Source: an uncultured delta proteobacterium
GTDB lineage: Bacteria > Desulfobacterota > WTBG01 > CAIYCZ01 > CAIRTM01
Length of the DNA stretch: 64,000 bases
Reading direction: 5' to 3'
Assembly: GCA_963723235.1 (NCBI GenBank)
Contig: CAVRPV010000011.1
Coordinates: 129,177-193,176, forward strand
The position numbers were made by a program, and so were the translations under genes. Shown here piece after piece: positions 10,484-34,612 of this stretch. The stretch's first letter is position 1. Every line of letters starts with the position of its first letter. The notes under the pieces are model-generated. The model worked only from the letters and a program-made list of their open reading frames with translations. It was not told where the DNA came from and did not search any database.

Positions 10484-10518
10484 CAAAAATACGGGCCGCC
10501 TCTTGCGAAGCGGCCCGC
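10484..10518 (-). terminator. rho-independent terminator downstream of sulfatase S1
   Basis: Minus strand reads CGGGCCGC-TTCGCAAGAG-GCGGCCCG followed by TATTTTTG. It lies 23 nt after the S1 stop. Confidence 0.6.
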
Positions 10519-10540
10519 GTGGGTTCATGAATGAAACAAC

Positions 10541-13061
10541 TTATTTCGCGTCGCCGGCTTTCTGCATGCCTTCTTCGAGCTTCTTGATGTCCTCGGGCGA
10601 CAGCTTCGGCCGGTCAACCTTGATCGTCAGCTTGTTGAGCTTGCGCGGTCAGGGTGAACGGCGGCTGGTAGTCCGCGTCGTTCACGCCGGTCAGGGTGTC
10701 GGAGCCGATGTCGAAGCTCTCGTCCCATTGCAGGATCATCGGCAGCGTGTGCGGCATCTTATGGTTTGGACTGCCTTGCCGTCCACCTTGAGCGTGCCGG
10801 TGCCGGGCCGGCCGAGGCCGCTCATGTTGTTGAAGGCGAGCGTGCCCAGCGCCAAGGCCGTCATACTTGAAGTCGAACTCGATCGTGTGCTTGCCGGGCG
10901 TGAGCGCTTCGGGGCCTTCCCACTTGATGCGCTTCAGGTCGATCAGGTTCCAGAGAAACACCGGCTTGCCCTTGAGCAGGTAGAAGCCGTAGCCGGCAAA
11001 CCGGCCGCCCGAGGTCAGGATCATGCCTTCGGCGCCGCCTTCCGGGACGTCGATGTCCGCCGTGATGGTGTACGAAGCTGTTGAGCAGCAACGGCGAATC
11101 GCCCTGCGGCAGGCCGACCATGGGCCTGGTGTACACGAACTCGGTGCGGCCGGCGGTGATGTTCGGGCGCGGGGCCACGATGCGGGCCGCCACCGAGGCG
11201 TCCAGCGGGAAGACCTGATACTTCTTCGCTTCCTCGATGAACATCTTCTTCATCTCCTTCACTTTGTCCGGATACTTGTCGGCGAGGTTCTGGGACTGGC
11301 TGAAGTCCTTGTTCAGGTCGTAGAGTTCGAGCACCTGGTTGTTGAGCGGGTCGGGATTGGCTGCGCCGAAGGCCTCCCACGGCGCGCGGTTGACCTTGGT
11401 GCTCAGCAGCCAGCCTTCGTGATACAGGGCCCACTGGCCCATCATCTCGAAATACTGGGTCTTGTGCCGGGACGGCTCCTTGGCGTTCTTTTTGTCAAAC
11501 GTGTAGGCGAAGCTCGTGCCCTCGATCGGCGCCTGCTTGATGCCGTCCACGTATTCGGGTGCGGGGATGCCGCAGACCTCGAGGATGGTCGGCACGATAT
11601 CAATGACGTGGCATGAACTGCTCGCGCAGGCCGCCCTTGTCCTTGATGTGGCCCGGCCAGGAGACGCCATGCCTTGGCGGATGCCGCCGAGCTTCGAGGC
11701 GTTTTGCTTGAACCAGGTGAAGGGCGTATCAAAGGCCCAGGACCAGCCCGCCGACATGTGGTTGTAGGTCTGCTCCGTGCCCCAGACGTCATACCATTTC
11801 ATCTGCTCGGCGACGGGCACATGTCGACGCCGTTGAAGAACGCGACTTCGTTGGGCGTGCCCAGCGGGCCGCCCTCGGCGCTGGTGCCGTTGTCGCCGTT
11901 GATGTAGATGATGAGCGTGTTGTCGAGCTTGCCCATGTCCTCAATGGCCTGGATCACGCGGCCGATTTCGTGGTCGTTGTAGGCCGCATAGGCGGCGAAG
12001 ATTTCCACCTGCCTGATGAAGAGCTTCTTCTCCTCGGGCGTGCAGTCATCCCAGTTCTTGATGACATTCGTCGGCCAGGGCTCCAGCTTGGTGTCCGGCG
12101 GGATCACGCCGAGGCGCTTCTGATTCTCAAAAATCTGCTCGCGCAGCTTGTTCCAGCCGTCGTCGAAGAGGTGCATGGCGTGAATCTTGTCCACCCATTC
12201 CTTGGTCGGATGATGCGGCGCGTGCGTGGCGCCGGGAACGTAGTAGATGAAAAATGGCTTGTCCGGGTGCGATCTGGTGGACTGCGGTTCAGGTAGTCGA
12301 TGGCGTCGTCGGCCATGCCGGTAACCAGGTTCCAGCCCGGCTTGCCCTCGAAGGGATAGATCTGCGTGGTGTTGCGGAACAGGTTCGGCTGCCACTGGTT
12401 GGCGTCGCCGCCGACGAACCCGTAGAAATACTCAAAGCCCATGCCGATGGGCCATTGATCGAACGGCCCGACCTGGCTGGCCGCAAAAGCCGGCGTGTTG
12501 TGGTCCTTGCCGAACCACGAGGTGGCGTAGCCGTTGTCCAGCAGGATGCGGCCGATGGTGGCCTTGTCCTTGGCGATGATGCTGTTGTAGCCCGGAAAGC
12601 CGGTGGACTGCTCGGAGATCACGCCGAAGCCGGCCGAGTGATGGTTGCGGCCGGTGATCAGCGCGGCGCGCGTCGGCGAGCAGAGCGCGGTGGAGTGGAT
12701 GTTGTTGTAGCGCAGGCCGGTCTTGGCGATGCGGTCCATCGCCGGCGTCGGGATGACGCCGCCAAAGGTGCTCGGGCACGCCGAAGCCGGCGTCATCGGT
12801 CATGATGAGCAGGACGTTGGGCGCGCCCTTGGGCGGCACGATGCGCGGCGCCCACCAGGCTTTCGACTGCAGGGCGCCGTCCTTGATCACGCCGCCGAAT
12901 TTCGGATCGGGCGCGGGGAGCTGTTTGCCGTCGATGGTGGTGGTCGCGGCGGGCGAACCGGGCGTGCCGGTGATCTGCTGGGCCATGCGCGATACCCGGC
13001 GCTGTCAGAACGGCCGTGCCCAGGACACCGTACAGGAGATTATTCTTTGCTGCGTTTTCAT
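10541..13061 (-). CDS. arylsulfatase S1, ~800 aa AtsA(Rv0711)-like, Cys-type, secreted (at least 6 frame interruptions as assembled)
   Basis: Fragments 12432..12986, 12104..12796, 11799..12395, 10861..11820 and 10614..11024 tile one sulfatase. Signature [16 protein letters not shown], with the Cys codon at 12680-12682. ATG at 13061 follows AAAGGGGAA. Signal peptide [25 protein letters not shown]. Stop TAA at 10541-10543. Confidence 0.9.
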
Positions 13062-13108
13062 GTTTTCCCCTTTCTGATCGGGTTGGTATTAAATCACCTG
13101 CTTATAGT

Positions 13109-13195
13109 TGTAGGCCGGACTAAATCCGCAGCTGACGATCCGGCGATCTGTTGTCAATCTTTTGCCGGACACGCTCCGCTTTGTCCGGCCTACAA
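13109..13195. repeat. REP pair (inverted GTAG-type hairpins)
   Basis: TGTAGGCCGGACTAAATCCGCAG...CCGGC, a spacer, then GCCGGACACGCTCCGCTTTGTCCGGCCTACAA. Confidence 0.85.
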
Positions 13196-13257
13196 GTGTC
13201 ACAGGTCGCTTCGGTTTATGCCCACTGTTTACGTGGTGCTCTGTATTTATCGCCCTT

Positions 13258-13638
13258 CTAGCGCCTCTTATGTCTTCCCCCTGTCCGCTGATTGTTGAAC
13301 CATGCACGAGCCAGAAGGATCGTCAATATGGCGTGGAGCACCACCGCCGGCCACAACAGGCTCCCGACCCACTCGCCGCTCATGCCCAGCCAGGCGAGGT
13401 ACAGTGTGGCGAGCAGGCTGTAAGTCAACATTGCCGGCAGCCCGGAGGTGGCATCGCCGGCCGGCCAGCAGGCCAGGCCCAGGGCAATCAAAGCGATGCC
13501 GGCCACCCGGGCTACCGGGATGGAAACACCGGTAAGTTCTGCGCCGAACAACAGCCGCCCGACGAGCGACGGCACAATCAGCAGCGCCACGCCAGTCGCG
13601 GCTTCGCCAACAGCGGCAAAAACAAGCACCTTTTTCAT
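13258..13638 (-). CDS. small 4-TM membrane protein between the two tandem sulfatases
   Basis: ATG at 13638 follows an AAGGA RBS. Sequence MKKVLVFAAVGEAATGVALLIVPSLVG...; hydrophobic throughout. Confidence 0.6.
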   Translation of the reverse strand: MKKVLVFAAVGEAATGVALLIVPSLVGRLLFGAELTGVSIPVARVAGIALIALGLACWPAGDATSGLPAMLTYSLLATLYLAWLGMSGEWVGSLLWPAVVLHAILTILLARAWFNNQRTGGRHKRR

Positions 13639-13690
13639 CACATCCTTTCTACGCCTTTCGCGCCAGAGGTCCCGTGTTGCGCATCCGCCG

Positions 13691-16194
13691 CTAGTCACGG
13701 GCCCCGGCAACGGTCTTGTGCATCTGCTCGCGTTCCTCTGCAGTCACCTGTTCCGTCTCGAGATTGAAGGTGAGCTTGTTGATCGTGCCGGTGAACTTGA
13801 ACGGAGAGTCGTAGCGATACTCCAGCATCGCGACGCCGGTACGCGTGTCGCTGCCGATATCGAAGGTTTCGTCCTCCGGGAACGTGATCGGGGTCGAGTG
13901 TGCTCCATGGAATTTCTGGCCACTTCCTTGCCGTCCACGGAGAGCACGCCTGTGCCTCCCTTGCCCAGGCCCGGGCCATCGGACTTGAAGTCGAAGACGA
14001 TGGTGTGCTTGCCCGGCACTCAGCTCGGGACCCGTCCCAGATCGTGCGCTTGAGGTCGAGCAGGTTGTAGAGGAACACCGGCTTGCCCCGGCGAATACCC
14101 CCCACACCCTTGCTCAGGAAGAGCCCGTAGCCGCCGAAGCGGCCGCCGTCGGTGACGATCATGCCTTCCGCGCCCCCTTTGGGGATCGTGACCTCGGCGG
14201 TGATGGTGTACGACTTGTTCAGGATGCTCGGAGCGCCGCTGTTGGGCACGCCGGACAGCGCGCCCGAGTAGGTGAAGACCATTCGTCCCGCCGTGAGGTT
14301 CGGCCGCGGCGCGTTCCAGCGTGCAGTGACGAGTTGTCGAGCGGCAGCACGTCATGCTTCTGGTCGCCTCTGCGTAGAAGAGCTCCTGCATCTGCTTGAG
14401 CTTCTCCGGCATCTTGGCCGCCAGGTCGTTGAATTCGGTGGGGTCCTCCGGCGACGTTGTAGAGCTCCCACTTGTACCCGGTGATCACGTCGGGCGCGGG
14501 CTTGGTGCTCAGTTCCCACGGCAGCGTCGCCGGGGTCGTGCATGCCACCCACCCGTCATGGTAAATGGCGCGGTTGCCGAGCATCTCGAAATATTGCGTC
14601 GTGCGCCTGGACGCGGCGTTGGCGTTCGCCTTGTCCCAGGTGTAGGCCATGCTCACGCCGTCCATGGGGCGCTGCTTGATGCCGTTGAGCGTTTCCGGCG
14701 CCGGGATGCCGGTCGCCTCGAGGATGGTCGGAACGATGTCGATGACATGGTGAAACTGGCGGCGAATGCCGCCTGCGTCGTTGATGTGGCCGGGCCACGA
14801 CATGGCCATGCCCTGGGCCGTGCCGCCGAAATGCGACGCCACCTGCTTCATCCACTTGAACGGCGTGTCCATCGCCCATGCCCAGGGCGCCGCAAAGTGC
14901 GGGAAGGTCTTGTCCGATCCCCAGAACTCGTACCAGAGCAACTGGTCCTTGACCGGCACGGGAACGCCATTGAAGGTGGTGAACTCGTTCGGCGTGCCGT
15001 TGAGCATGCCCTCCGGCGCTCGCGCCGTTGTCGCCGCTGATGTAGATGATCAGGGTGTTGTCGAGCTGGCCCAGGTCTTCGACAGCCTGGATGACGCGGC
15101 CGATCTCGTGGTCGGTGTAGGCGAGGTAAGCCCCGTAGACGTCGGCCTGCTTGATGAAGAGCTTCTTCTCCTCCAAACCCGAGGGAATCCCACTCCGGCA
15201 GTTCCTTCGGCCACGGCGTCAGCTGAGCGTTCTCGGGCATGATGCCCAGCCGCTTCTGGTTGGCGAAGATGGTCTCGCGAATCTTGTTCCAGCCCTCGTC
15301 GAACAGGTGCATGTCGCTGATCTTCTTGATCCACTCCGGCGTCGGATGATGCGGCGCGTGCGTGCCGCCCGGCACGTAATAGACAAAGAACGGCTTGTCG
15401 GGCGCGATCGGCCTTGATCTGCTTCATGTACTGGATCGCTTCGTCGGCCATGGCCGTGGTCAGGTTCCAGCCCGGTTTGCCCTCGAAGGGATAGATGGCC
15501 GTCGTATTGCGGTACAGGTTCGGCTGCCACTGGCTGGCGTCGCCGCCGACGAAGCCGTAGAAGTACTCGAAGCCCATGCCGTTCGGCCACTGGTCGAAGG
15601 GCCCGGCCTGGGTCGCCTGATAAAAGGGCGTGTTGTGGTTCTTGCCGAACCACGAGGTCGCATACCCGTTCTCCTTCAGGATCTCACCGATGGTGCCGTT
15701 TTCCTTCCGGATGATCGAGTCGTAGCCCGGGAACCCTGTCGCAATTTCGCCCACGACCCCAAAGCCGGCCACGTGATGGTTGCGGCCGGTGATGAGAGCC
15801 GCGCGTGTGGGCGAGGAGAGCGACGTGGAGTGAAAATTCGTATAGCGCAGCCCGCTTTTCGCGATGCGATCCAGTGCCGGTGTCGGGACGACGCCGCCGA
15901 AGGTGCCCGGCGCGCCAAACCCGCAATCGTCGGTCATGATGAGCAGCACATTGGGCGCGCCCTTGGGCGGCACCACGCGCGGCGCCCACCACGCTGTCGA
16001 CTCCGAGGCCTTCTCCTTGATCACGCCGCCGAATTTCGGATCAGGCGGCGGGAGTTGCTTCCCGTCGATGGTGACGGTGGCGGTGGGCGAACCGGGTGTG
16101 CCGGTGATCTGCTGGGCCATAGCCTGCGCCCGGGGTGGTCAAAACGGCCGTGCTCAGCACTCCGTATAAGAAAATTCCTCTGTTGGGTTTTCAT
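13691..16194 (-). CDS. arylsulfatase S2, tandem paralog of S1, Ser at the formylglycine position as assembled (at least 5 frame interruptions)
   Basis: Fragments 15050..16120, 14848..15375, 14556..15176, 14219..15007, 13695..14282 and 13691..14107. Signature [17 protein letters not shown], with Ser codon tcc at 15814-15816. ATG at 16194 follows AAAGGGGAA. Signal peptide MKTQQRNFL.YGVLSTAVLTTPGAG. Confidence 0.9.
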
Positions 16195-16260
16195 ATGCTT
16201 CCCCTTTCTGCAATTTGATTTTTAAAACCCAAAGAACATGCAAGCGTGCATCCGCACACA

Positions 16261-19350: not shown

Positions 19351-19444
19351 CGGACATATTGGGCATATACCTCATCAAAATTATAGTGTTGTTGGCTTAC
19401 AATGTTATTTTGCTGCTGTTATTTTCTACAGATATCTCCGTTTG

Positions 19445-20487
19445 CTATTGTTGAAAAGCGAAAATGCGTTTCCAGTCGTTCTTCATGCTGATGACGGTCC
19501 AGCCCTCCTTCTGTGCGCCTCGCCATGAGCGCATCGCTGAAGGTGCCGATCTTCGACGCCGGGCCGTAGGCAAACTCGCGTGCCGCGTCGTCGTGATGCA
19601 CCAGCATCATCAGCGCGCACCGCCGCCGCCTGCGTCCACTCCAGCATCTGCTGGTCGCCGTCGGAGTTGCCGAAGGCGGCGATGGGCCGGCGGCCGATGT
19701 GCTGATTGATGCCGACCGGCTTGCCGGCCTTGTCGTCGATGAAGTTGAACTCCGGCAGCCGCACGAGCACCGGGCTTGCCGTCGCGCATCTCGAATTTCG
19801 TCTTGATGCTGCTGCCGATGACCTGCTCGGGCGGGATGCCGTAGACTTTTTCCGTCCAGGGGCGCATGAACTCGATGCCGCCGCCGGAGACGATGAAGGT
19901 CTTGAAGCCGTTGGCCCGCAGGTAGGCGAGCAGTTCGAGCATCGGCTGATAGACCATCTCGGTATAAGGCCGCTTGGTCTTGGGATGCTTCGCGGTGGCG
20001 AGCCAGTCCTTGACGATCTTGCTCGAACTCCGTCGGTGGTCATGCCGGCATGCGTGGCCATGACGATCTCGACGATGCGCCTGTCTCGCCGCCCGGCAAG
20101 CGCGCCTTTCACGTCGCCCTTGAGCAGCGAGGCGAAGGGCTCCTTGGTCCTTCCACTCCGGATGCTGCGGCGCCAGCGCCTTGACGCGGTCGAGGGCGAA
20201 GAGGAACTGGAAATACATCGGCTGCTCGGCCCACAGCGTGCCGTCATTGTCGAACGTGGCGATGCGCTCGGCCGGCGGCACGAAATCCGGCTGCGCCTTC
20301 CTTGGTTACCTTTGTCGACGAAATCGATGATCGACTTGCTTGGCCGCGCCGTCGTTCCAGGAGGGCAGCGGATCGGCTGGCGCGTGCGACTGCGTCGCCG
20401 CGGAACGAGCAGCGATGACGGCAGCGCAATAGAGGCAAGCGGCGATCGTCTCAGATCAATTGCGACGTGCTCGTTTCGATGCGGCAT
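19445..20487 (-). CDS. secreted HAD-superfamily hydrolase (several frame interruptions)
   Basis: ATG at 20487 follows an AAAGGAG RBS. Motif I is FDNDGTLW (DxDxT). FIVSGGGIEFMRPW and GNSDGDQQMLEW are found across frames of 19483..20487, 19610..20281 and 19419..19610. Stop TAG at 19445-19447. Confidence 0.7.
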
Positions 20488-20517
20488 GGAATCGCTCCTT
20501 TCTGAGCTTAGATAGAA

Positions 20518-20543
20518 GCGGGCGGCTCTTGCGAGCCGCCCGC
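20518..20543 (-). other. GC-rich intercistronic hairpin between sulfatase S3 and the HAD gene
   Basis: GCGGGCGGCTC-TTGC-GAGCCGCCCGC. On the minus strand it has a GCAA loop and no clear U-tract. Confidence 0.4.
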
Positions 20544-20562
20544 TCAGTATTTGCCTATCGTC

Positions 20563-22229
20563 TTACTGCCCTTGTTTGGCTGCATGGCTGCCTCGATCTT
20601 CTGCTTTCACCGCATCGAGGTTGAAGCTCGCGCCCTTCTGCATGGGCGGATACTCGATGGCCGTCATGGCCAGCTTCGCCACTTCCTGCTGGACGAACAC
20701 GAAGCGCCAGAACTCATACTGGAACCAATCTGAAGTATTCCTGCGCTCCGTCCTTGGTCCCGTTTGACGGCCAACCCGTGCGCTCGAACGGATCGAGGCG
20801 CAGGTTGGTCAGGATACGGCACGTCGACGTGTGACTTTGGCGCCCAGCCAGCCGTCGGGCTGGTCGATGAAGCGATACTTGAAGTCGTCGATACGCACCG
20901 CGCCGAGCGTGCTTTCGCCGAAGTAGAAGATTTCGTGGCGTTCGACGGGCCTTTGCCGGTGATCAGCGTCCATCTGGTTGTAGCCATCAAGATGGTCCTT
21001 GTAGGTGCGTGTCGCCGAGTTTCTTACCCTTCAGCAGTTCGTCGGCGATGTTCGGATTGCCGGCCGCGGCGACGAAGGTCGGGAACCAGTCGAGGCCGGA
21101 GAAGATGCCGTTCTGAACCTTGTCCGCCGGCACTTTGCCGGGCCAGCGGATGATCGCACGGCACGCGGAAGCCGCCTTCCATGACGGTGCCCTTTGGTCT
21201 GCGCGAACGGCGTCTGTCCGCCATCGGGCCAGGTGAAGACCTCGGTGCCGTTGTCGGTGGTAAACACGACGATGGTGTTGTCGTCCACGCCCATGTCCTT
21301 GAGCTTCTTCATGACGACGCCGACGATGTCGTCGAGTCTGGGCCATGCCGGCTTCCTGGATGGACCAGCCATTCTTCGAGTTGCGCATCGTTCTCGTACT
21401 TGTCGGCGAGAGATGCGTGACGATGTGCATGCGCGTCGGATTGAGCCAGAGGAAGAACGGCTTGTTGTCGGCCTTGGCCTTGTCCATGAACTTGATGGCG
21501 AGGTCGAGAATTTCGTCGTCCACGGTTTCCATCCGCTTGGGATAGAGCGTGCCGGCATCCTCGATCTTCTGCTTGCCGACCTTGCCCCAGCGCGGCATCA
21601 CCGTCGGGTCGTCCGTGTCGGTCGCCCAGCTGTGGACCATGTTGCGCGGCCCGACTTTGTCCATGCAATTCCTGCGGGTAGTGCGGGATGCGCGGGGTCT
21701 TCCATCGCGTCGAGGTGATAGAGGTACCGAAGAATTCATCGAACCCGTGGACGGTGGGCAGGAATTCGTTGAGATCGCCAAGGTGGTTCTTGCCGAACTG
21801 GCCCGTGGCATAGCCCATGGCCTTAAGCGCGGTGGCAATCGTCAGCGCCTCGGCGGGCAGCCCGATTTTGGCGCCGGCCTGGCCGACCGTGGTCATGCCG
21901 GTGCGGATCGGCAATTCGCCGGTGATGAAGTTGGCGCGGCCCGCCGTGCAACTCGCCTCGGCATAATAGTCGGTGAACAGCATGCCTTCCTTGGCCATCT
22001 TGTCGAGATTCGGCGTCTTGCCCGGCCATCATGCCGCGATGATAGGCGCCGATGTTCCAGCATGCCGATGTCGTCACCCATGATGACGACGATGTTGGGT
22101 TTGCTCCTCTGCTTGGGAGTATCAGCAGCTTGCGCCGTTGCTGTCAGCGGCACTCACCGTGAACCCTGCCAGCACGCATCCGACTGCCGCCCACTTGCGG
22201 GCCTTTCTCTTGAGATCTTCTTTTCTCAT
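20563..22229 (-). CDS. sulfatase S3, ~550 aa, Cys-type (CxAxR), secreted (at least 4 frame interruptions; 3' end approximate)
   Basis: ATG at 22229. Signal peptide [68 protein letters not shown] and [10 protein letters not shown] are found across 21893..22153, 21309..21998, 20987..21838 and 20664..20990. Confidence 0.85.
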
Positions 22230-22322
22230 CACACTGTCCTCCTTGTTTGTGTTGACAATTCCCGGCAAGAACTATGGAAAACGGCTTTTCCGCATCTCAT
22301 GTCTTCCCGGGTCTTTCTGTTG
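22230..22322 (-). promoter_or_regulatory. conserved 5' leader shared with sulfatase S4, containing an imperfect palindrome
   Basis: Sequence ttcccggcaagaac.atgga.aa...cttttccgc.tctcatgtcttcccgg. It is about 85-90% identical by eye to 33216-33308. Confidence 0.4.
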
Positions 22323-22370
22323 TGGACATCTTTGCTACATACGGTTGCCCATAATAAAGGGTGTTAAAAA

Positions 22371-22478
22371 GCCGGACACGAGCTTGATGGTATATGGCAA
22401 TTGCAGGCCGGACAAAGCGAAGCATGTCCGGCACTGGCGCAAGTTTGTAATGGAACAATGTTCTTTATCCGGCCTGCC
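22371..22478. repeat. REP cluster
   Basis: GCCGGACACGAGC...; TGCAGGCCGGACAAAGCGAAGCATGTCCGGC; ...TTATCCGGCCTGCC. Confidence 0.7.
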
Positions 22479-22483
22479 TTGCG

Positions 22484-23725
22484 CTACGGCGCAACCGCGG
22501 GCTTTTTTTCGACAATGCTCCAGCCGCGCTGCTCAAGCGCGGTGCGGGCCTGCGGGTCAACCTTGCCGTACACAATGAGATGCTTGCCCGTAACGCCTTT
22601 CATCTTGCCTATGGCTGCGGAAAAGAGCTGCTCCTTCTGGTCAAGATTCTGCGTCCAGGCGATATAGTCAAGGGGGAAAACACCAACAATGGTATTGTCT
22701 TTGGTTTTGAGAAATGTCTTGCCGTTGACATCAACCATACTTTTTATACTCTTTGCTTCTGAAGCGTACGCGGCCATACACTCGGCCTGAAACCGCACAA
22801 AAAGTGCCACCGAAGGGTCCTTGACACCAAAGCAGTTCAAGATAAAATTAGAGCGGCCGCTGACCCCCTGCATGCTTTCAAGGGCGCCCACAATGAGCGT
22901 CTTGTCATACGGGTTGAAAAGATAGTTGTTTAAAAATTCATCAGCCAGCTGGGGCGTTACGCCCATGGCCAGAAGCGCCTTTTTGTTGATGTCGTTAAGC
23001 TCGGCCGGTGATTTATCGCGCACCTTTTTTTTCATCGAGTCCGAGGTGCTCGACAGGCTGATCACCGTGCCGGGAATATCGGGAATGGCTAAAAAAGCGG
23101 CTTTCACAGTCAGTCCGCCGGCAAATGATACCCAGGCAAGCTCATCGAGCTTATCCTGCAGCTGCTTGTTGGCTGTATAGGGATTCACATCGAGGCGGTA
23201 GGCGAACATGCGTTTTGCCGCAGCCTGCCCCAGGGCGGTCTTGGCGACATTGGGCTGGTTGGGGTCCTTGCTGACGATGGAGGTACCGACATCGCTGAAC
23301 CACCGGCCGATGCCGGTACCGATTTTTTTCACCGTATCAACAGGCTCGGTCACCAGCCCCTTGGCCGTGTTGTAGGGCCCGAGGCCCGCTTTTTTAAACG
23401 CGTCTTTGAACTCATCCGATTTCGAAATTTTTTGTATTTTTTCCAGCGCGGCACGCTCTTTTATATATATCATAAGCGCCTGCGTGCTTTCGATGGCAGC
23501 GCTGCCGCCCGGGTCGGTGACGCTGTATTCATTTACAAGGCCGTCATTTTTGACCTCTTCGGCAACCCGGTAATCAGACCCGTTTAACAGGGCCGCAGGC
23601 ACGAAATCGGCGCTCTTGAGCATCAGGGGCGGGCTCTGATACCCGGGCTGCTGCGCCTCCGCGCTGGAGGAGGAAATATGCAGCACTGCACATAGTAAAA
23701 CTGTGACACAAAGGTGTCTCTGCAT
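22484..23725 (-). CDS. secreted hypothetical protein (413 aa)
   Basis: Intact ORF with signal peptide MQRHLCVTVLLCAVLHISSSSAEA. I recognised no family. Confidence 0.7.
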   Translation of the reverse strand: MQRHLCVTVLLCAVLHISSSSAEAQQPGYQSPPLMLKSADFVPAALLNGSDYRVAEEVKNDGLVNEYSVTDPGGSAAIESTQALMIYIKERAALEKIQKISKSDEFKDAFKKAGLGPYNTAKGLVTEPVDTVKKIGTGIGRWFSDVGTSIVSKDPNQPNVAKTALGQAAAKRMFAYRLDVNPYTANKQLQDKLDELAWVSFAGGLTVKAAFLAIPDIPGTVISLSSTSDSMKKKVRDKSPAELNDINKKALLAMGVTPQLADEFLNNYLFNPYDKTLIVGALESMQGVSGRSNFILNCFGVKDPSVALFVRFQAECMAAYASEAKSIKSMVDVNGKTFLKTKDNTIVGVFPLDYIAWTQNLDQKEQLFSAAIGKMKGVTGKHLIVYGKVDPQARTALEQRGWSIVEKKPAVAP

Positions 23726-23776
23726 GAGCTAGTCCTTTCCAATAGATTAAAGGTAGATTAAATAGGTCAACGTCCT

Positions 23777-24538
23777 TTACTGGCTGATCTTCTCCATCAA
23801 GTACTCAAGCGTGCTCTCGGCAAGCAGCATGTCCCGCAGACGCTGCAGCCCACCTCCTTTCTCAAGTTCTGCCTGCAATGATTTCTTTGTCGTTTTAAAT
23901 TCTTCGGCCTTCTCGGCAATGCGTTTGTCAACATCGGTATCGTCAACCTCGATGCCTTCCTGCCGCGCTATCTGCTTCAGGATCAGCATCAGTTTTATCT
24001 GGTTTTGCGCGGCCTGCCACTCCGGGCTGCCTGGTGCGCTGCCGTCGATACCATCAAAGGCGAGTTCATCCTTCACCAGACCTGTCAGGGATATCGAAGC
24101 TCACCAGCTCCAGAAGCTTCAGCGATATCTGGTCGCGGGGGTCGACGCTTCCGTCATCGATTTTCAGGCTGCTCAAATCCGGCAGCTCGATCTTCGGCAT
24201 GGGATAAAAGCGCAGCTGAGCGCGAAAGATCTCGCCTCGCGCGCACTCAATATCCTCTGCCTCCGCAAGACCCAAAACCTCAATCCCGGCTTCCCGGACA
24301 GCCTCGCGGCCCAGGCGCTGCGCAGCTCGATACGGAAAGATCTTCGATGATTTCTTTCTGAAAGCGCTTCTCGATCACGCTGCGCGGGACCTTGCCCGGC
24401 CGGAAGCCCGGAACGGAGGCCTTGGCATACCCGGCCACGACGTCGTCGTAATCGGCGGCAAGCTCGGACCACTCGGCCTCGACCTTCAGGCGGTGATAGC
24501 CGTCATTGCTAGTTGTTATCTAATGGGGTGGTTTTCAT
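23777..24538 (-). CDS. short trigger-factor-like protein lacking the PPIase domain (about 3 frame interruptions)
   Basis: ATG at 24538. N-domain ribosome-binding signature VPGFRPGKVPRSVIEKRF. The C-terminal fragment 23777..24076 resembles the TF C-domain end (LILKQIARQEGIEVDDTDVDKRIAEKAEEF). Total length is only about 250 aa. Confidence 0.6.
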
Positions 24539-24605
24539 AGGTTATCGAAATGGATAAATGAGAGTTGTTGGGTTTCGCCCTTTACATTCTGTACGTTTTC
24601 ATAAG

Positions 24606-25981
24606 TCAATTTAATTTCTGTGCAGGTTGGGTTGAGATACGAAACCCAACGCAATGTTTTCCGGGCTTAACCCTAACCCTACTAAAAAAAATCTTCATTC
24701 CCAGACCCGACACCCGACACTTTCCCCTCCTCACCCTCTTCTCCGGCTGCCAGTGCTCTGCGGCATGCGTACGGACCTCTTTGACCACTGTTTGCCCCAG
24801 ATCCCGCACGATCTTCTGCACGGGCTCATCGATATGGGAGAAAAACTTTTTCCAGCCGCTGCACAGGTAATTCAGCCCTGCCTCGCCCTCGGAGGTCTTG
24901 ATGAAGCGGTTCTTCGGGCACTCCCCGAAGCAGGTGAACTGGTAGTCGCACCTGCGGCATTGCTCCGGGAGCAAACCCTCCTTCATCATGCCGAATTTTT
25001 CCTGCTGCTTCGAGTAGGCCATGTCCGCGAGCGGCCGCTCCTGCAGGTTGCCGGCGCAATACTCCGGATAAACATAATGGTCGCAGGCATAGACTGATCC
25101 GTCGCGCTCAAGCGCCATACCCTTGCCGCACAGGGGGCCCTGCGTGCAAAGCGGCGACACATGGCCCATCCAGGTCTCAACCGCCGCCTCGAAATAGTTC
25201 ACATAGATTTTGCCAAGGTCTTTGCGATGCCACTCATCAAAGACGCGGCAGAGAAAATCGCCCCAGTCATCGGGGTCAACGCTCCACTCCTCCACAGCCG
25301 ATCCCTCGGTGCCGGGCCGCGCCTGGGGCGAGCCCTGCACCGGCATCAGGTTGCACGTCCCATCGCTGGGGCGCAATACTCTGGAAGCCCACGGGCTCGA
25401 CAATCGGAATGAACTGCATTCTTTTTGATCCCACCTGATCGCGCAGGAACCGGTATACCTCAAGCGGTCGTTGTGCCGTTAGCCGGTTGACGCAGGAGAG
25501 TGTTGCGAAGTTCACCTTGTGCTTTCTCAGCAGCTTTGAAGCGCGAAAGGCGCGGTCGAAGCTCCCCTTGCCCGCTGTATCTTTTCGATAAGTGTCGTGC
25601 AGACTGCTTCGGCCCGTCGATAGAGAGACCGACAAGGAAGTTTTCATCATGGAGAAACCTGCACCAGTCGTCGTCCAGCAGCGTGCCGTTGGTCTGCAGA
25701 TCGTTTTCGCAGCGCACATGGGCCGGGCAGTATTTCTTCTCAAGCTCAACAACTCTCCGGAAGAAGTCAAGGCCCAGCAGGGTCGGCTCGCCGCCCTGCC
25801 AGGAGAAGACCACCTCTTTGTAGTTCTGGCTTTCAAAGTATTGGCGGATAAATGCCTCAAGCACTTCATCGGCTATGCGCCATTGTTCAGGCCTGCCCAG
25901 CAGTTCCTGCTTGGAGAGATAGTAGCAGTAGGCGCAGTCAAGATTGCACAGCGAGCCCGTGGGCTTCACCATCACATGCAT
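24606..25981 (-). CDS. anaerobic sulfatase-maturating enzyme 2 (radical SAM/SPASM; at least 2 frame interruptions; C-terminal end uncertain)
   Basis: Fragment 25460..25981 has VKPTGSLCNLDCAYCYY and WQGGEPTL. Fragment 24606..25463 has YACDHYVYPEY...CRRCDYQFTCFGECPKNRF. The last ~40 codons may be read-through past a T8 run near 24684. Confidence 0.9.
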
Positions 25982-26074
25982 GCGCCGATGGGCTTGCCGC
26001 GAAAAATCTGCATTTTATGCTGCCAAATGTCCGTCATGCTGTCTTCGCAAGTCTGCATATTTGCAGTAAGGTTT

Positions 26075-26537
26075 CTATTTTTTTCTTACGAACTCCACCT
26101 CAAATTGTTGCTGCTGCACGGCTTGAAAATAAATGCCTGTCAGCCGGTCCGTGGCCGGGTCATAGCTCAGCGTGTAGGTCGAGCCGGGATAATTCACATC
26201 GCGCAGTTCGACAAAAACCTGCAGGCGGCCGTCCTGAAGTTTCCATTCGCGCGACGCGACATTGATCGGCCGCGGGTTAAAATAGGCGGCCTTTAAGATG
26301 CCGTCCGGGCTGACGCTGCTCAATTCCAAGCACATATCCGCCGTCGGGCCGCAGCCATTGGCCAAGCAGTTTTGACGTGTCCGGCCCTGACGAAGCTGCG
26401 TATTTTCCCCACATCCAGTAGCCCGCCATCGCCACCACGACCGCAACAACGATGATGCCGGCTACCCACCAGCCGGTGCGGCGGCGGGGAGCAGCGGACT
26501 GCTGAGGCTTAGCTTTGTGTTTGGTTTTTTTGCTCAT
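26075..26537 (-). CDS. membrane-anchored hypothetical protein (one frame interruption)
   Basis: Fragment 26277..26537 (MSKKTKHKAKPQQ...WWVAGIIVVAVVVAMAGYW) joins 26075..26449 (SPDGILKAAYFNPRPINVASREWKLQDGRLQVFVELRD). Confidence 0.55.
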
Positions 26538-28877: not shown

Positions 28878-30143
28878 TTAAAATTTATAGACAATATTCA
28901 TATTGAAGACAGTAATGTAGTTCGTATTGTATTTTCCCTTGAGTTCGCCCCGCAGCGGCCCGCCTTCCTGATCGACACGGGAACTGCCGGCATCAATCAG
29001 TTCAAAAGCCCCGCCGATGGTAATATCATTGTTTATTTCATACTGCAGGCCCGTGGCATAGCGGATCTGACGATCAAGAGGGAGCACGGGTGAGCGGTCC
29101 TGCGCTTTGTCAATCGGCGATGTGTCATAGGCAACCCCCGCGCTCATCAGCCACTTGGGCGCGATACGGTACTGGGCCCCGAGCGCGACATGGTAGGTGT
29201 CCTGGTAGTCAAGGTCGTCGGTAAGCGAATTCGTTGCTCTGCCGGTTTCGACGCTGATCTCCGGCTCGCCGAATCGGCTCCAGTCCTGCCAGCCGAGATT
29301 TGCGCACAGGGCGAGCTCCGGGGTAAGCTGATGCCAGATGCTGAACATGATGTCCTGCGGAATGGTCGTGTCAATCGAGAGGTTTTTTAACACATCCGGC
29401 AGGGCACTAATGATCCAGCCTTCTTTGTTGACGTCAGGCTTATCGCTGAAGTTCAGATCCACTGCCGAGCGGTAGGTAAGGCCAAGACGCGTCTGTTTGC
29501 TGAGTTCAAGCAAAATGCCGAGATTATAGCCATAGCCGATATCCGTATCTTTGTATTTCAGGCTGCCATCGTCCTGACCGGGCCTCGGCGAATTAACAGC
29601 CACCTTGGTATACATCTTCCCCCCGACAACGCTGACACCGCCGCCAATGGAGATATAATCGTTCAGCCGGTAGCCGATTGAAGGATTGATACAGGCTGTC
29701 AGAAATTCTGCGTCCTGGACATAATATCTGCCCGACCAGCCATCGCCATAATCAAGTCCCAGGCCAAAATAGGAGCCCGAGTAAATTCCGAGCCGGAGGT
29801 CGTCGTTAACCTTGTGCACATAGGCAAATGTTCCGCTCGGCATAAACCCGCCGGCATCGCCGCCGCCACCGCCGCTGTTGGTTGCGCTGTCGACATGGAA
29901 TTTTGATGTTACGTTTATGCCCAGGAAGCCGCCGACAAGCTGGCTGCGGTCGAGTACGGTCATTGCAGCCGGGTTGCCGAAGGCGGTTGAGGCATCAAGG
30001 GCTGATGCCGCCCGGCCCGCATTGGCCATGCCCATGTCGGGGATGGCGCCTTCATACATCCAGAGCCCGCCTGCAAAAGCATGCCCCCTTGCCATGATCA
30101 TAAAAAACAGCAGCAATAGTATTCTTAAAACTTTTTTATTCAT
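28878..30143 (-). CDS. FadL/OMPP1/TodX-family outer-membrane channel for hydrophobic compounds
   Basis: Intact 421-aa ORF with a signal peptide. N-terminal GMANAGRAASALDASTAFGNPAAM is typical of FadL-family proteins. Aromatic C-terminal residue (..VYKF). Confidence 0.8.
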   Translation of the reverse strand: MNKKVLRILLLLFFMIMARGHAFAGGLWMYEGAIPDMGMANAGRAASALDASTAFGNPAAMTVLDRSQLVGGFLGINVTSKFHVDSATNSGGGGGDAGGFMPSGTFAYVHKVNDDLRLGIYSGSYFGLGLDYGDGWSGRYYVQDAEFLTACINPSIGYRLNDYISIGGGVSVVGGKMYTKVAVNSPRPGQDDGSLKYKDTDIGYGYNLGILLELSKQTRLGLTYRSAVDLNFSDKPDVNKEGWIISALPDVLKNLSIDTTIPQDIMFSIWHQLTPELALCANLGWQDWSRFGEPEISVETGRATNSLTDDLDYQDTYHVALGAQYRIAPKWLMSAGVAYDTSPIDKAQDRSPVLPLDRQIRYATGLQYEINNDITIGGAFELIDAGSSRVDQEGGPLRGELKGKYNTNYITVFNMNIVYKF

Positions 30144-30330
30144 TTTCCCCCCTTAAATATTGAACAATCTGGTAGTACACTCCGTGTATAGCACACTGTT
30201 ACATTGTAAGAAAATATTATTTTTCAATAAACAATTGGGGATATAGCCTGTTCTCAATTGCGCATTTTGCAGACTGGCAAAAACCGCCGCAGGGGATGTC
30301 CGGCATTAAAATATTACAGAACCGGCTGCT

Positions 30331-31267
30331 TTAGAGATCAAACAGCGCGCCCTTGATGAGCTTCGGGATCACCGGCGTTACCACCAAGTTGTATGTTCCA
30401 CATCTGGCCGAAGTCGTCCGGCCGTATGGGCATGTACTGCGCTGCAAGGCCGAGCTTAACCGGCAGCCTGCCGAACTTGACGACCTTATTGACCGCAACT
30501 CCAACGGGCACGGTCCAGCGGTTGTCCTTCTCCTCCTCCCAGTTTGCAAGTATGTTGCCAGAATACCCCACGCTCCAACCGTCTTTTAAAAACCACGCGG
30601 CAATGGGCTGCAAGTTCATCTGGTTCGTGTGATCGCGGTCTTTGTCGCCGGCAAATGACGACCAGTTTTGGACGAAAGCTCCGAGTATCCATTTTTCTGA
30701 AAGATAGCCTGCCACTGCCGCCGGACCCGCTTGCCACTTTTCCTGACCCGTGTATTTCGATGTGGCCGTGGGAAGAATAAACGTGGGCCCGACGCCGAGC
30801 AGCCAATGGCCGACAAGGCTGGGGCCGGGAGAAAACATTTCAGCTACAATGGTATCGCCAAAGGCCGTTGTGCGCCGATAGTCCACATTGGGCTTCGAGC
30901 CCCCGTTTTTTTCGGACACGTGCGGATAGGGCGTGGAGTTGAAAAGCTGAAATACGGGCCGTGTTATGAGATTCCAGTCTTTGGTGAGCGCTACGGGCAT
31001 CACGGGCTGAAACTGCAAATTTGACTGCCAGCGGCCGGGATGGCTAAGGTGATAATTGTTCTGCTGAATCACCAGGGACCAGATAGTGCTCACCGGGTTG
31101 GCGAGCTCCTTGTTGAGTTCAGTTGCTGACTTGCCCTGGTTTTCATCCTCTGCCGCCGGGACGACTGCCTCAGGCTTGACCTCGGCATCCCCTGCGATGC
31201 CTGCAGTTGGAGCAAGAACAAGAAACAGTACGGTCGTGATCAACAATAATTTGATCAAAATTTTCAT
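30331..31267 (-). CDS. outer-membrane beta-barrel protein (MetA-pathway/'transporter' family-like; one frame interruption near the 3' end)
   Basis: ORF 30338..31267 has a signal peptide. Shifting frame gives the C-terminus ...MWNIQLVVTPVIPKLIKGALFDL* (ORF 30331..30549). Confidence 0.6.
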
Positions 31268-31537
31268 TATGCAGTACCTTTTTCCCGGCTAAGAGTTGTA
31301 TTTGATAGCATATTGACAACGTCAGCCGCAGCGAATTCAACAGACTAGGGTTTTAAATCAAACACCTTGAGTTTCCTGGCCGCCGTACCGAACTGCCCGA
31401 GCTGATAAACGGCAGCGCCAGCCGGCGAGAAGGTGAAGTTCTCGAACGGTTCGGCAAGCTGCATGTCACTCAGATGCTGCATTTCACAATTGACGGGAGC
31501 GGCCCCGGAGAATTTCCCGGAGCCGCCCGCCGAATGT

Positions 31538-33215
31538 TTATTGTCCCGGAAGGCCCAGGTTGAAGCCGTCTTTCCCAAGCTGTTCGCGGAGCCACTGAAA
31601 CTTCTGGTATTTGGAGATTTCGACCGGACCGTCGTAGCCCATGCTCTGGAGCTTGCGCGGAGGGTACTGCGCATAAGTCTTCATCAGCCCCATGATTGCC
31701 TCGGTAATGGGGATCATGGTCCAGGTCCGCTCCGTCCAGTTGGTCATAAAAAGGTCATACCGTTCCTGAGGGTCCTGCAAAAGGTCGAATATCTGGGGAA
31801 TGGTGGCAACATATTTTTCCGCGCCCTTCCAGCCGAGATTGGTGTCCACGGCAAGACCTCCGGTCGGTTGCCCATTATCGCCGCGCAGGTTGAACACGGC
31901 TTTGTAGTTGCCGACACGGGCTGCGCCGGGGGAAAGCTCGTTCTCAGTGAAGTAGAACCATGAACTGCGTGCCGACTTGCCGGTGCCAAAGAGAACCGGT
32001 GACATGTCATAGCTGTCAAAAATAATGGGCTGCCCCTCGCGGTCCTTCTCCGGAAGCTTGATTCCTGCGAGCGAAGCAAAGGTAGCCATGTAATCCAGTC
32101 CGCCCAAGATGTCGTGATTCTTTGAACCGGCCTTGATCTTCGGCCCCCAGGCAATAGCGGGAACGCGGTTGCCGCCTTCACGCACCGTGCCTTTGGTACC
32201 CCGGAACGGCGTGTAGCCGGCATCCGGGTAAACGTCCTGCCAGGCACCGTTGTCCGTGGTCCAGAAAATATACGTGTTCTTGTCGAGGCCCAGCTGACGA
32301 ACCTTATCGACCACTCTGCCGATCCGCGTGTCGTTCTCTACGAGGGAATCAGCGTACTTGCTCTTGGAGATCGATTTATGCTTGAACTCAGGAGCGGGCA
32401 TGTTCGGCTGATGCACCTTCATAAAGTTGATGCTCATGAAGAACGGCTTGTCGGATTTTGCCGCCTTGTCGAGATAGTCAAGAGCCGCCTTCTCGATGTA
32501 CTGGTCGATGAACGGAATCCCGACCACACCCTTCTCGGGAGTGTTGACATACTGGCCGTTGATTTTGAATTCTGTAATCGCCTTCTCGCCTGCTTTTCCG
32601 GAGAGGGCACCCTTGGTCACTTTGTCAAACATCTCTCGCAGCTTTGGATCCATTTCGGGGAACCAGGTCGGGTCGCCATAGGTATAGGCATTAAGGTGAT
32701 AGAGCCCGCAATATTTCATCTCGTCATAGCCCTGATTTATGGGCAGAGCATAATCGGCCTCGCCCAGGTGCCATTTGCCGGTGAAGAAAGTCTGGTAGCC
32801 GCCGGTCTTTAGCACCGATGCCAGGGTCCACTCCGCGGCCGGCAGCCCGCCGCCCTGGCCCTGAAAGGCCACGGTGGTCATGCCGCTGCGGTTGGGGATG
32901 CGGCCGGTCTGCACCGCTGCGCGGCCCGGCGTGCAGCTCGGCTGCGCATAGAACGAGAAGAAGGTCATGCCCTTCGCTGCCAATTTGTCGAGGCTGGGCG
33001 TGGGCATGCCGCGGCCCTCGCCGCCGCCATAGGGCCCCGCAGTCTCCGTAACCGAAGTCATCGGACAAGATCAGGATGATATTGGGTTTGCTCCCCTGCT
33101 TGGGAGCATCAGCGGCCTGCGCCGGCGCTGCCGCAGCGCTCACAGTGAACCCTGCCAGCACGCACCCGACTGCCGCCCACTTGCGGGCCTTTCTCTTTAG
33201 ATCTTCTTTTCTCAT
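31538..33215 (-). CDS. sulfatase S4, ~555 aa, Cys-type (CxPxR), secreted (one frame interruption near 33050)
   Basis: ORF 31538..33061 (YAQPSCTPGRAAVQTGRIPNRSGMTTV, GKWHLGE) joins N-terminal [58 protein letters not shown] from ORF 32724..33401. ATG at 33215. Confidence 0.9.
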
Positions 33216-33308
33216 CACATTGACCTCCCTGTCTGTGTTGCACGGTTCCCGGCAAGAACATGGATAAGCAGCCTTTCCGCCTCTCATGTCTTCCCGGTGT
33301 TTCTGTTG
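33216..33308 (-). promoter_or_regulatory. conserved 5' leader shared with sulfatase S3
   Basis: See 22230-22322. The imperfect palindrome TTCCCGGCAAGAACATG...CATGTCTTCCCGG spans 33247-33297. Confidence 0.4.
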
Positions 33309-33357
33309 CGCCACCATCGTTACCACATAATTTTGTTTGATCAATTCTTGGAATGCA

Positions 33358-33673
33358 TCACTGCGGGCACTGGGCCTTGATCTCGGCGATCTTTTTGTCA
33401 ATCGCCCTGTTATATTCGCCGGTAGCCACTTTAAATTTATCTACCTCTGTGCAGCGTGACGATGCCGATAACCGCACCGGCAGGCACCACTGCGGTTACC
33501 CCTTCTGCTATCATTTTTCCGACACTGGCTTTTTCAGACTGCAGCACCCGCAAATCACCTTCCGCGGTTGCGCAGTTGACGGGCTTTGCCAGGTCCTGCT
33601 TGTCCTGTTTGGTTATGGGCGCGCAGGCAGACATAAGGGTTAACACCATGATTGTCAGTAGAATTTTTTTCAT
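33358..33673 (-). CDS. small lipoprotein (one frame interruption)
   Basis: MKKILLTIMVLTLMSAC (lipobox). After a shift near 33440 it continues ...TEVDKFKVATGEYNRAIDKKIAEIKAQCPQ*. Confidence 0.5.
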
Positions 33674-33743
33674 TGCTTGTCCTCCCTTTTTTTAATTGTT
33701 GGTATGCGCAGACGTTGTTGCCTGCCAGCTCCGGCTGTTTCCA

Positions 33744-34451
33744 CTAGTAATCGGCATCATCCTGATCAACAACAAAGCCACTACCATCACCTCTACCACT
33801 ACCGTCATCACCATCATTATTATCATTATCATCATCATTCAAGTCATCATCATTGTCGTCATCGCCATCGCCATCAACATACACGACAGTTCCGTCATCC
33901 CCTCTGCGATACATCCGCCGGGCTTCACCGTCATATGAGTGCGGCGTCATCGGCCTGCCGATGCTGTCTATAAACAGGGTACAGGGGCCGCCGCTTGCTA
34001 TCATTTTTCCATGCAGCACCTTGATGTCATAGGTCAGCACGTCGCCCTTGAGCACCGGGTTGCGCAATTCCACGACCATATCGTGAGTTTTATTTTGACT
34101 GAAAACCGACAGGACGGCATTGGGCGGGTCGGCGGCAAAGCTGTCTTCACCCTGCGACCACTTCGGTATGGCATGGGCGGTTAGAATATGGCCGACGATA
34201 CGATCCGGGCGATCGGAAAAGAAAATCGTGTTCGGGCCCACTCCTTTCAGGATCATTTGATTGTCTTTGAGCTCTACGCTTTGGGCAGTCTGCACAAAAA
34301 GCAGATTAACTTTTTTGGGAGCAGCGCTTGCAGCATCTGCCGCAGGTACGGCAGCAGCGCTATCGACGGGTTTGGTTTCTCTGGTTATGCACGTGCAGCC
34401 AGCCATGAAAGCCACTGCCGTCACAAATAGGACTATTCCTTTCATGCGCAT
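33744..34451 (-). CDS. secreted/lipoprotein of unknown function with a ~45-aa Asp/Asn-rich C-terminal tail
   Basis: Intact 235-aa ORF. Lipobox FMAGC. Core LLFVQTAQSVELKDNQMILKGVGPNTIFFSDRPDRIVGHI. Tail DGDGDDDNDDDLNDDDNDNNDGDDGSGRGDGSGFVVDQDDADY. Confidence 0.7.
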   Translation of the reverse strand: MRMKGIVLFVTAVAFMAGCTCITRETKPVDSAAAVPAADAASAAPKKVNLLFVQTAQSVELKDNQMILKGVGPNTIFFSDRPDRIVGHILTAHAIPKWSQGEDSFAADPPNAVLSVFSQNKTHDMVVELRNPVLKGDVLTYDIKVLHGKMIASGGPCTLFIDSIGRPMTPHSYDGEARRMYRRGDDGTVVYVDGDGDDDNDDDLNDDDNDNNDGDDGSGRGDGSGFVVDQDDADY

Positions 34452-34496
34452 CTCAAGCCTCCTGTATTATTTTTGTAGCGTTAAATATTGTGGTAA

Positions 34497-34612
34497 GCAG
34501 CCACGGCCCGCATTGGCCATGCCCATGTCAAGGATGGCGCCCTTATGCAGCCAGAACCCGCCTGCAAAAGCTTGCCCACCTCCTAAAATGATAAAGCCGG
34601 GCAGTATATGAG
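34497..34612 (-). pseudogene. N-terminal remnant of a FadL-family gene
   Basis: The minus-strand peptide ..AFAGGFWLHKGAILDMGMANAGRG matches HAFAGGLWMYEGAIPDMGMANAGRA of 28878..30143. DNA similarity to 30005-30110 is visible. No downstream continuation. Confidence 0.6.

Follow-up and report, generated by a model that had tools for sequence, protein, structure and literature searches.

Two sulfatase genes on the minus strand of a contig from an uncultured delta proteobacterium (GenBank assembly GCA_963723235.1, contig CAVRPV010000011.1), here called S3 and S4, begin almost base for base alike and continue into proteins that resemble each other only distantly, which raises the question of how two divergent enzymes came to share one 5' end. 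We addressed this question in a window of 64,000 nucleotides (positions 129,177 to 193,176 of the contig; all positions below are those of the window), which belongs to a genome of 2.8 Mb in 20 contigs (83% complete, 53% GC). Our analysis makes it likely that the 5' end of S4 was swapped for a resident module linked to a trigger factor (TF) gene, and that a sulfatase-specific family of signal peptides spreads as such a DNA module from an operon encoding a sulfatase-maturating enzyme (anSME) and a small trigger factor (mini-TF).

S3 and S4 share a sharply bounded 5' module

We drew the limits of the shared tract from local and global pairwise alignments and from a maximum chi-square scan of S3 against S4. 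The module copy of S3 extends over 22091..22310 (minus strand), from the leader hairpin through the ribosome-binding site (RBS) and the start codon (ATG at 22229-22227) to the end of the signal peptide at the amino acids KPNI, and the copy of S4 over 33078..33297 (minus strand), with the same leader hairpin, RBS and signal peptide and the start codon at 33215-33213. In both genes this amounts to ~93 nt of leader, a Shine-Dalgarno ribosome site (AAGGAGG/GGGAGG) 8 nt upstream of the ATG and 46 codons ending in KPNI. Inside the tract 191/219 positions are identical (87.2%), compared with 781/1583 (49.3%) outside it (Fisher p = 8.7e-29); the alignments join ~235 bases at 87% identity, and a weaker similarity continues past the tract to ~22341 in S3 and ~33329 in S4. 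Identity peaks in the coding part, where windows of 30 bases hold 27-30/30 identical positions across the start codon and the first 27 codons. These codons, which differ at 5 synonymous sites only, are 95-100% identical, as against 82% in the leader. At the codons AAACCCAAYATC, which encode KPNI, identity drops from 27/30 to 17/30 within ~20 nt, and both breakpoints are sharp.

Beyond the junction lie the mature sulfatase domains, that of S3 at 20575..22090 (minus strand; type A, Cys-type CTAGR, 91% identical in amino acids to the intact metagenomic protein P0001, on which PF00884 was matched) and that of S4 at 31538..33077 (minus strand; a different subfamily, CTPGR, PF00884 with E = 1e-44). 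While the signal peptides agree in 38/42 residues, the mature domains agree in 177/464 (38%), and the GC content is 61% in the S3 body, 57% in the S4 body and 54-58% in the module. A genome-wide search found two copies of the module in the 2.8 Mb, those of S3 and S4. The original prediction had described a near-identical 5' module fused to distantly similar bodies of different GC content, and had proposed pairwise alignment for its breakpoint and a search for further leader copies. The description is confirmed: the alignments show an abrupt end rather than a gradual decay, and the search returned no leader besides those of S3 and S4.

S4 as a recombinant gene

Homologs of S4 number >5000 at E <= 1e-50, and we compared the signal peptides of the best 120 of these (84-88% amino acid identity). 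The mature N-terminus KPNIILILSDDFGYGD is common to 120/120, and 114/120 carry signal peptides that are unrelated to the module, being ordinary, mutually unalignable and hypervariable; a diverged form of the family signal motif described below is found in 6/120. Between S4 orthologs that are 85-90% identical, the signals are 31% identical, which is the noise level. The S4-type body is exceptionally conserved, its best 120 homologs coming from sources labelled Desulfosarcina, Acidobacteria and others, and the 16 other genomes of the family hold no S4 ortholog.

The module of the S3 type occupies the sulfatase position next to the TF gene in the relatives L051, G005 and P0001, the last of which is the S3 ortholog. 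L051 is a contig 84-89% identical to the backbone of the window, and its module is 88-90% identical to those of both S3 and S4, while its sulfatase body is 51% identical to S3 and 35% to S4 at the protein level. The modules of L051 and G005 are in turn 70-82% identical, though their bodies are close orthologs (~86% at the nucleotide level, estimated from the alignment). Judged by the signals of the S4 orthologs and by the comparison with L051, the tract and the remainder of the gene have incongruent histories. Because more than 100 close orthologs of S4 carry ordinary, hypervariable signals, we conclude from these comparisons that S4 is a recombinant gene, whose 5' end was apparently replaced with the junction at the KPNI codons. 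On the other side of the gene, a 114-nt intergenic stretch just 3' of the S4 stop codon (31346..31459, minus strand) matches L051 (blastn, 80% identity, E = 6e-21), where its homolog is located downstream of the TF-linked sulfatase-HAD pair, so that S4 has sequence from the ancestral locus of the sulfatase at either end.

The block around S4 from 30005 to 34603, which comprises two lipoprotein genes, S4 and an open reading frame (ORF) of 309 aa, is bracketed by direct copies of the 5' end of FadL (34502-34603 and 30005-30110) and is absent from the syntenic relative L051; from these two features it looks inserted or duplicated.

Recurrent sharing of the module on other contigs

A comparison of eight pairs of sulfatase paralogs on six contigs (the window, L011, L021, L034, L014/L035 and L046) revealed signal-coding DNA that is 79-94% identical, as against 59-73% in the next 600 nt, and in 4/8 pairs the similarity reaches upstream as well, with 77-95% identity over 100 nt. 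Identity confined to the 5' end is seen in five contigs besides the window, some of them with record names that suggest short-read assembly. In several lineages the copied unit begins within the 3' end of the upstream mini-TF gene (..LLAES.LGYLMEIN*), and mini-TF 3' remnants of 25-55 codons precede sulfatase paralogs, also where the genome has no complete TF gene. Such remnants are direct evidence that the transfer took place at the level of DNA. Upstream of S3 and S4 themselves, a comparison for a TF 3' remnant gave no convincing similarity beyond ~20 nt before the hairpin.

The original prediction had proposed that conversion or recombination made the 5' end a movable cassette for expression and secretion, and that duplication alone does not account for the sharp breakpoint. 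We agree on the second point, and the first is supported by the unrelated signals of S4 orthologs, the incongruence of module and body, the paralogs on other contigs and the TF remnants.

Remnants of mini-TF directly upstream of sulfatase paralogs were seen at L034:1-1100, L034:2700-2860, L035 (upstream of 7146), L015 and L029. An apparently identical TF truncation junction occurs in a metagenome-assembled genome (MAG) of Desulfobacula and in one of Acidobacteriota, which suggests horizontal transfer of the recombinant.

The signal peptide belongs to a conserved family

Read by eye, the signal peptide has 7 K/R in its first 12 residues, a stretch W13-A30 and then AQA|AD. This is the architecture of a Sec-type signal cleaved by signal peptidase I (SPase I), with a charged n-region, a hydrophobic h-region of 15-20 residues and an A-x-A cleavage motif. 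We rejected a twin-arginine (Tat) signal, as the RR motif is absent in all ~45 members and neither TIGR01409 nor Pfam gave a match, and likewise a lipoprotein (SPase II) signal: A-V-G-C is preceded by only 5 uncharged residues after K12, and its Cys is replaced by G, T or A in P0122, P0138, P0153, P0156, P0157 and L052. The 53-aa N-terminus matched 0 families in Pfam and NCBIfam at E <= 1, and membership in YSIRK, ESPR or KxYKxGKxW was rejected on the curated models, none of which matched.

The family consensus opens with M-K-x-K-x4-5, has the core WAAVGCVLA and continues later with A-A-x...K-P-N. A search with residues 1-46 only found 15 metagenomic sulfatases of at least 5 body types, and a degenerate DNA pattern for W-A-[AT]-V-G-C-V-L-A added ~24 genes from MAGs labelled delta/Desulfobacterota, Acidobacteriota, Gammaproteobacteria and Calditrichia; since synonymous positions vary freely in the latter, the conservation acts at the protein level. 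A 47-position profile of the signal run against 1.84 billion protein representatives matched 29 short fragments and is unsuited to counting, because the clusters of full-length sulfatases have representatives there that were picked according to their bodies. Sulfatase motifs follow the signal in all except two or three of 21 fragment sequences from this library. Between family pairs whose mature domains are 20-35% identical, the signals are 57% identical, or 46% after removal of nine residues forced by the probe. The signal is attached to at least 6 sulfatase subfamilies in several phyla, Cys-type and Ser-type enzymes alike. On this evidence the signal peptide appears to constitute an undescribed, unusually conserved and almost sulfatase-exclusive family, and the 10 synonymous versus 4 non-synonymous codon differences that separate the signal regions of S3 and S4 since their exchange suggest that it is kept by purifying selection.

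Two members stood out. In L020 (match at 5965, minus strand) and P0018, the family signal is fused to a protein that is no sulfatase and seems to span the membrane (..KKAGFEKWWLGLTVGIVTVIFG..); only two or three such cargos outside the sulfatases were encountered. At L053:4397-4541, an in-frame TAA lies within the c-region of the family signal (..AQAGES*NKPNIVV..) of the sulfatase downstream of mini-TF, on account of which the gene caller began at VVIFGDD.

An anSME/mini-TF operon as the source of the module

In the window, two genes on the minus strand upstream of S3 point to the origin of the module. A mini-TF (23777..24538; 3 frameshifts), which consists of Trigger_N and the distal half of Trigger_C and is devoid of the peptidyl-prolyl isomerase (PPIase) domain, is the ancestral upstream neighbour of the module, and anSME2 (24732..26037; 3 frameshifts), a radical SAM/SPASM sulfatase-maturating enzyme, is the first gene of the ancestral anSME/mini-TF/sulfatase operon. 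The anSME2 ortholog L051:3909-5219 has Radical_SAM and SPASM domains. The intact mini-TF ortholog L051:5216-5962 (248 aa) matches Trigger_N with E = 5e-23 (residues 11-125) and, with E = 5e-10, the distal half only of Trigger_C (residues 170-244), and gave no match to the central PPIase domain FKBP_C. The mini-TF of the window contains GFRPGKVP, which conforms to the ribosome-docking motif GFRxGxxP of trigger factor. Such PPIase-less trigger factors of ~250 aa form ~390 clusters in the protein collection.

Within a sample of 401 genomes of the phylum, mini-TF occurs in 4, and the signal profile matches exactly those 4; the signal adjoins TF in two of them and lies ~0.85 kb downstream in one. 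At the level of the taxonomic order, mini-TF and signal co-occur in the same 2/21 genomes. Starting from the TF side, we chose six more mini-TF loci. The order anSME, TF, sulfatase holds in 6/6 of them, and the family signal is present in 5/5 of those with DNA, including a Nitrospira-labelled one with G for C. In these six loci the reading frames of anSME and mini-TF overlap (by 4 nt in most), which suggests translational coupling. Taken together, these comparisons identify the anSME/mini-TF/sulfatase operon as the apparent evolutionary source of the module. A strict co-occurrence of signal and mini-TF was rejected from the signal side, where it holds for 5/17 genomes only, and a full-text literature search found no paper that links trigger factor with sulfatase or anSME maturation.

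The mini-TF stop codon is separated from the S3 leader by REP-like hairpins (22345-22480; REP, repetitive extragenic palindrome) and by an intact, secreted-looking ORF of 413 aa without a Pfam match (22484..23725, minus strand). In L051 and G005, TF and leader are adjacent, without this ORF between them. Two of the loci reached from the TF side (L052-L056), namely L053 and L054, are preceded by genes for a sigma-54 activator and an ABM-domain protein; these upstream genes hint that the operon may be under sigma-54 control.

The leader folds into a stable hairpin

The imperfect palindrome that the original prediction had noticed in the shared leader is real and folds in each copy as a hairpin of ~-23 kcal/mol with z = -3.1. 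In S3 it spans 22259..22310 (minus strand; CCGGG-AAGA-CAUG ... CAU-A-GUUCUU-G-CCGGG with an apical GCGG/CCGU helix; -22.8 kcal/mol, z = -3.16), 1/200 shuffles being equally stable and a separate prediction giving the same position. The homologous stem-loop of S4 spans 33247..33297 (minus strand; -23.8 kcal/mol, z = -3.14). Leader stem-loops are 58-61 nt long and have -23 to -24 kcal/mol, with z = -4.1 in L051. Neither their base helix nor the arms CCGGGAAGAC and TTGCCGG vary among S3, S4, G005 and L051, and it is in the apical helix that G005 departs from the others. In L051 and G005 the hairpin is intercistronic, with the TF stop codon on one side and the RBS of the sulfatase on the other, and the distant leaders L055 and L056 also fold as a hairpin at the analogous place.

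The covariation check that had been proposed for the leader found zero compensatory pairs among the four close leaders (S3, S4, L051 and G005); the alignment extended by L055 and L056 is unreliable. An Rfam scan of the window gave no match, promoter and terminator scans of both leaders gave no consensus on the gene strand, and inspection of the leaders by eye gave no sigma-54 spacing. A pattern scan of metagenomes returned 5 stretches, none with the hairpin leader. A dispersed palindrome similar to REP or to a miniature inverted-repeat transposable element was rejected, since the leader has two copies only in the 2.8-Mb genome. Of the cis-regulatory hairpin that had been offered as the alternative to recombination, the stability and the retention in four related leaders therefore stand, without compensatory changes or an Rfam match to go with them. 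Most likely, the stem-loop would work at the level of RNA, as an element for processing or stability placed between the cistrons of the chaperone and the sulfatase.

Frameshifts and the state of the assembly

Neither S3 nor S4 is intact in the assembly, which the original prediction had not noticed. A frameshift-aware alignment with P0001 places 19 frameshifts and 0 in-frame stops in 1.65 kb of S3; the frame is broken within the signal peptide by an extra base at ~22145, with 18 more frameshifts downstream. In S4 the one frameshift is a +1 in the C-run 33035-33038. It lies ~40 nt beyond the end of the module and separates the frame of the signal from that of the body; the orthologs (best 120) read GDSGPYGGG across it. 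The 3 frameshifts each in anSME2 and mini-TF come without in-frame stops, and the HAD gene has at least 5, with one in-frame stop; FadL and the 413-aa ORF, amid these genes, are intact. The frameshifted genes of 19400-26100 are 74-91% identical to intact orthologs, and the related bins are MAGs of the Nanopore type. Abundant indels with hardly any nonsense codon, at ~90% protein identity, point to consensus error rather than decay, and we regard consensus error as the probable cause of the frameshifts; that they are real is less likely.

The indel pattern of 19400-26100 looks like a consensus of poor local quality, and a mixture of reads from a cluster that is shared horizontally may be behind it. 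Two more sulfatase genes of the window, S1 and S2 (10500-16200), also appear fragmented in the ORF lists. Their N-termini are near-identical (12500-12986 and 15700-16120) and have no signal peptide, which sets them apart as a separate, probably cytoplasmic, class of large sulfatases.

Alternative explanations

Several observations weigh against the account that we prefer, in which a TF-linked module replaced the 5' end of S4 and the signal family spreads from the anSME/mini-TF operon. On the direction and mechanism of the exchange, the data fit a conversion of the S4 5' end as well as an exchange of the body within a locus that had been duplicated. The hairpin leader is missing in most module-bearing lineages, where the TF stop codon abuts the RBS, and the four close leaders show no compensatory pairs. 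As for the family, most members were found with probes that require WAAVGCVLA, so that the invariance of the core is partly by construction; the probe-independent support consists of the 6 diverged variants among S4 orthologs and the 5 loci from the TF side. For a functional coupling, it counts that mini-TF is present in only 5/17 signal-bearing genomes and a close anSME in only 6/17, the signal being kept in the 12/17 without mini-TF and a close anSME2-type enzyme being missing from 11. Finally, should the frameshifts of S3 and S4 be real, the module sits on pseudogenes here.

An explanation without any exchange would derive S3 and S4 from the duplication of a single gene, after which strong selection held signal and leader constant as the bodies grew apart. 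The signal is clearly under purifying selection across lineages, yet bodies that are 38% identical imply saturated synonymous sites, whereas the first 27 codons hold 5 synonymous differences and the leader is still 82% identical. The sharp breakpoints and the unrelated signals of many S4 orthologs contradict it as well, and we consider such a history very improbable. Equally hard to credit is an artefact that arose when the long reads of the metagenome bin were assembled or polished, through a chimeric join or through reads of another copy that contaminated the consensus. The cluster of anSME2, TF, S3 and HAD is indeed dense in single-base indels while neighbouring genes are intact, the S4 frameshift is found ~40 nt from the junction, and the related MAGs are Nanopore-type assemblies. 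However, 13% of positions differ between the two copies and both have a closer match in the independent L051, so neither was copied from the other; a long-read misjoin at a 12-nt microhomology is implausible, and the same identity limited to the 5' end recurs in five other contigs.

Two further readings concern what is selected in the module. If the leader were the selected unit, as an operator palindrome or an RNA hairpin, the coding identity would be a by-product. This would fit the stable hairpins of S3, S4, L051 and G005 (z = -3.1 to -4.1 for S3, S4 and L051), their invariant arms and the hairpins at the analogous position in L055 and L056. We nevertheless find it rather unlikely, as the first 27 codons, and not the leader, hold the highest identity, the hairpin is unrepeated elsewhere in the genome and has neither compensatory pairs nor an Rfam match, a promoter or terminator consensus was not found, and most module-bearing sulfatases elsewhere have no such leader. 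Alternatively, the signal may be a recognition tag, which mini-TF would bind cotranslationally, keeping the sulfatase unfolded and cytoplasmic until anSME has made the formylglycine and then releasing it to Sec. This tentative possibility complements the recombination account, as any sulfatase entering such a genome would have to acquire the tag. Every mini-TF locus examined precedes a sulfatase with the family signal, the same 4 genomes of 401 hold both, the overlapping anSME and mini-TF frames suggest translational coupling, mini-TF retains its ribosome-docking motif, the signal is far more conserved than ordinary signals, and there is a precedent in PceT, a TF-like chaperone that binds the Tat signal of PceA (PMC8905343). 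Its support is genomic linkage, 4/4 in the 401 genomes and 5/5 in TF-side loci with DNA, and the co-occurrence on the TF side may reflect one inherited operon; the peptide is also kept in the many genomes, counted above, that have no mini-TF or close anSME2-type enzyme. If true, the tag would be a Sec analogue of Tat proofreading and would explain why the signals of incoming sulfatases are overwritten by the resident module.

Proposed mechanism and significance

Returning to the exchange of a TF-linked module as the preferred explanation, we propose the following course of events. S3 and S4 are both secreted sulfatases of the formylglycine type, from different subfamilies. The 5' end of S4 was in all likelihood replaced through homologous or microhomology-mediated recombination, as a partial gene conversion or a cassette exchange, and the incoming unit was the 5' module of the resident TF-linked sulfatase locus, made up of a ~90 nt intercistronic leader with its stem-loop, a ribosome-binding site and a Sec-type signal of 42-46 residues. 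The 3' junction fell at the KPNI codons, which open every sulfatase domain. Out of the ancestral operon, the module has apparently been copied repeatedly to other sulfatase paralogs and moved between genomes, sometimes together with a scrap of the TF 3' end, and copies within a genome are apparently kept alike at the DNA level by conversion. The module might thereby bring a newly acquired sulfatase under the resident regime of translation, export and maturation. The signal peptide itself would most likely have a role in the cytosol before Sec export, so that anSME could reach the nascent enzyme, perhaps with the help of the mini-TF docked to the ribosome.

As a rule, the sequences of signal peptides change quickly in evolution, and one signal is taken to be as good as another. 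The existence of one that is conserved across subfamilies and phyla, and that is actively copied between genes, implies a role that goes beyond targeting to the membrane. How maturation of anaerobic sulfatases in the cytoplasm is coordinated with Sec export of the unfolded substrate is, to our knowledge, an open question, and the operon of anSME, mini-TF and tagged sulfatase offers a concrete and testable mechanism for it. Tag and chaperone are also practical parts for the heterologous production of active anaerobic sulfatases, and in annotation the motif marks secreted sulfatases of the anSME type. The module boundaries further warn that trees of full-length sulfatases mix two histories.

Comparison with known systems

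The tract resembles known cases of partial gene conversion and mosaic paralogs in being a sharply bounded stretch of high identity in divergent paralogs, with an incongruent history and recurrence in several genomes. Unlike these, the unit here is a functional front end of leader, RBS and signal that crosses sulfatase subfamilies and phyla and that in some lineages brings along a remnant of the upstream gene. As an export signal of conserved sequence tied to one class of cargo, the peptide is reminiscent of YSIRK (PF04650), ESPR (PF13018), KxYKxGKxW (TIGR03715) and twin-arginine signals; it differs from them in a motif that spans the n/h boundary of a Sec/SPase I-type signal, in a cargo made up almost only of sulfatases and in having no RR motif and no valid lipobox.

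In AtsB and AtsA of Klebsiella, an anSME and a periplasmic sulfatase of the Ser type, a radical SAM maturase likewise modifies an exported sulfatase in the cytoplasm, and AtsB-dependent formation of formylglycine reportedly requires the AtsA signal peptide in the cytosol, which would speak for the recognition-tag reading. We know of no conserved signal sequence or TF-like partner described for this pair, and while AtsA is of the Ser type, Cys- and Ser-type sulfatases are both tagged here.

A dedicated chaperone gene beside an exported enzyme that depends on a cofactor or modification is also what is found with PceT/RdhT and with the Tat proofreading chaperones TorD, DmsD and NapD. PceT keeps the PPIase and C domains and is without the ribosome-binding N domain, whereas the mini-TF described here keeps the N and distal C domains and has lost the PPIase. 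In contrast to PceT and the Tat chaperones, the pathway here would be Sec, the binding of the signal is putative, and many signal-bearing genomes are without the chaperone. By analogy, the closest functional counterpart of the mini-TF and its putative tag is PceT, the TF paralog that binds the Tat signal of the dehalogenase PceA (PMC8905343).

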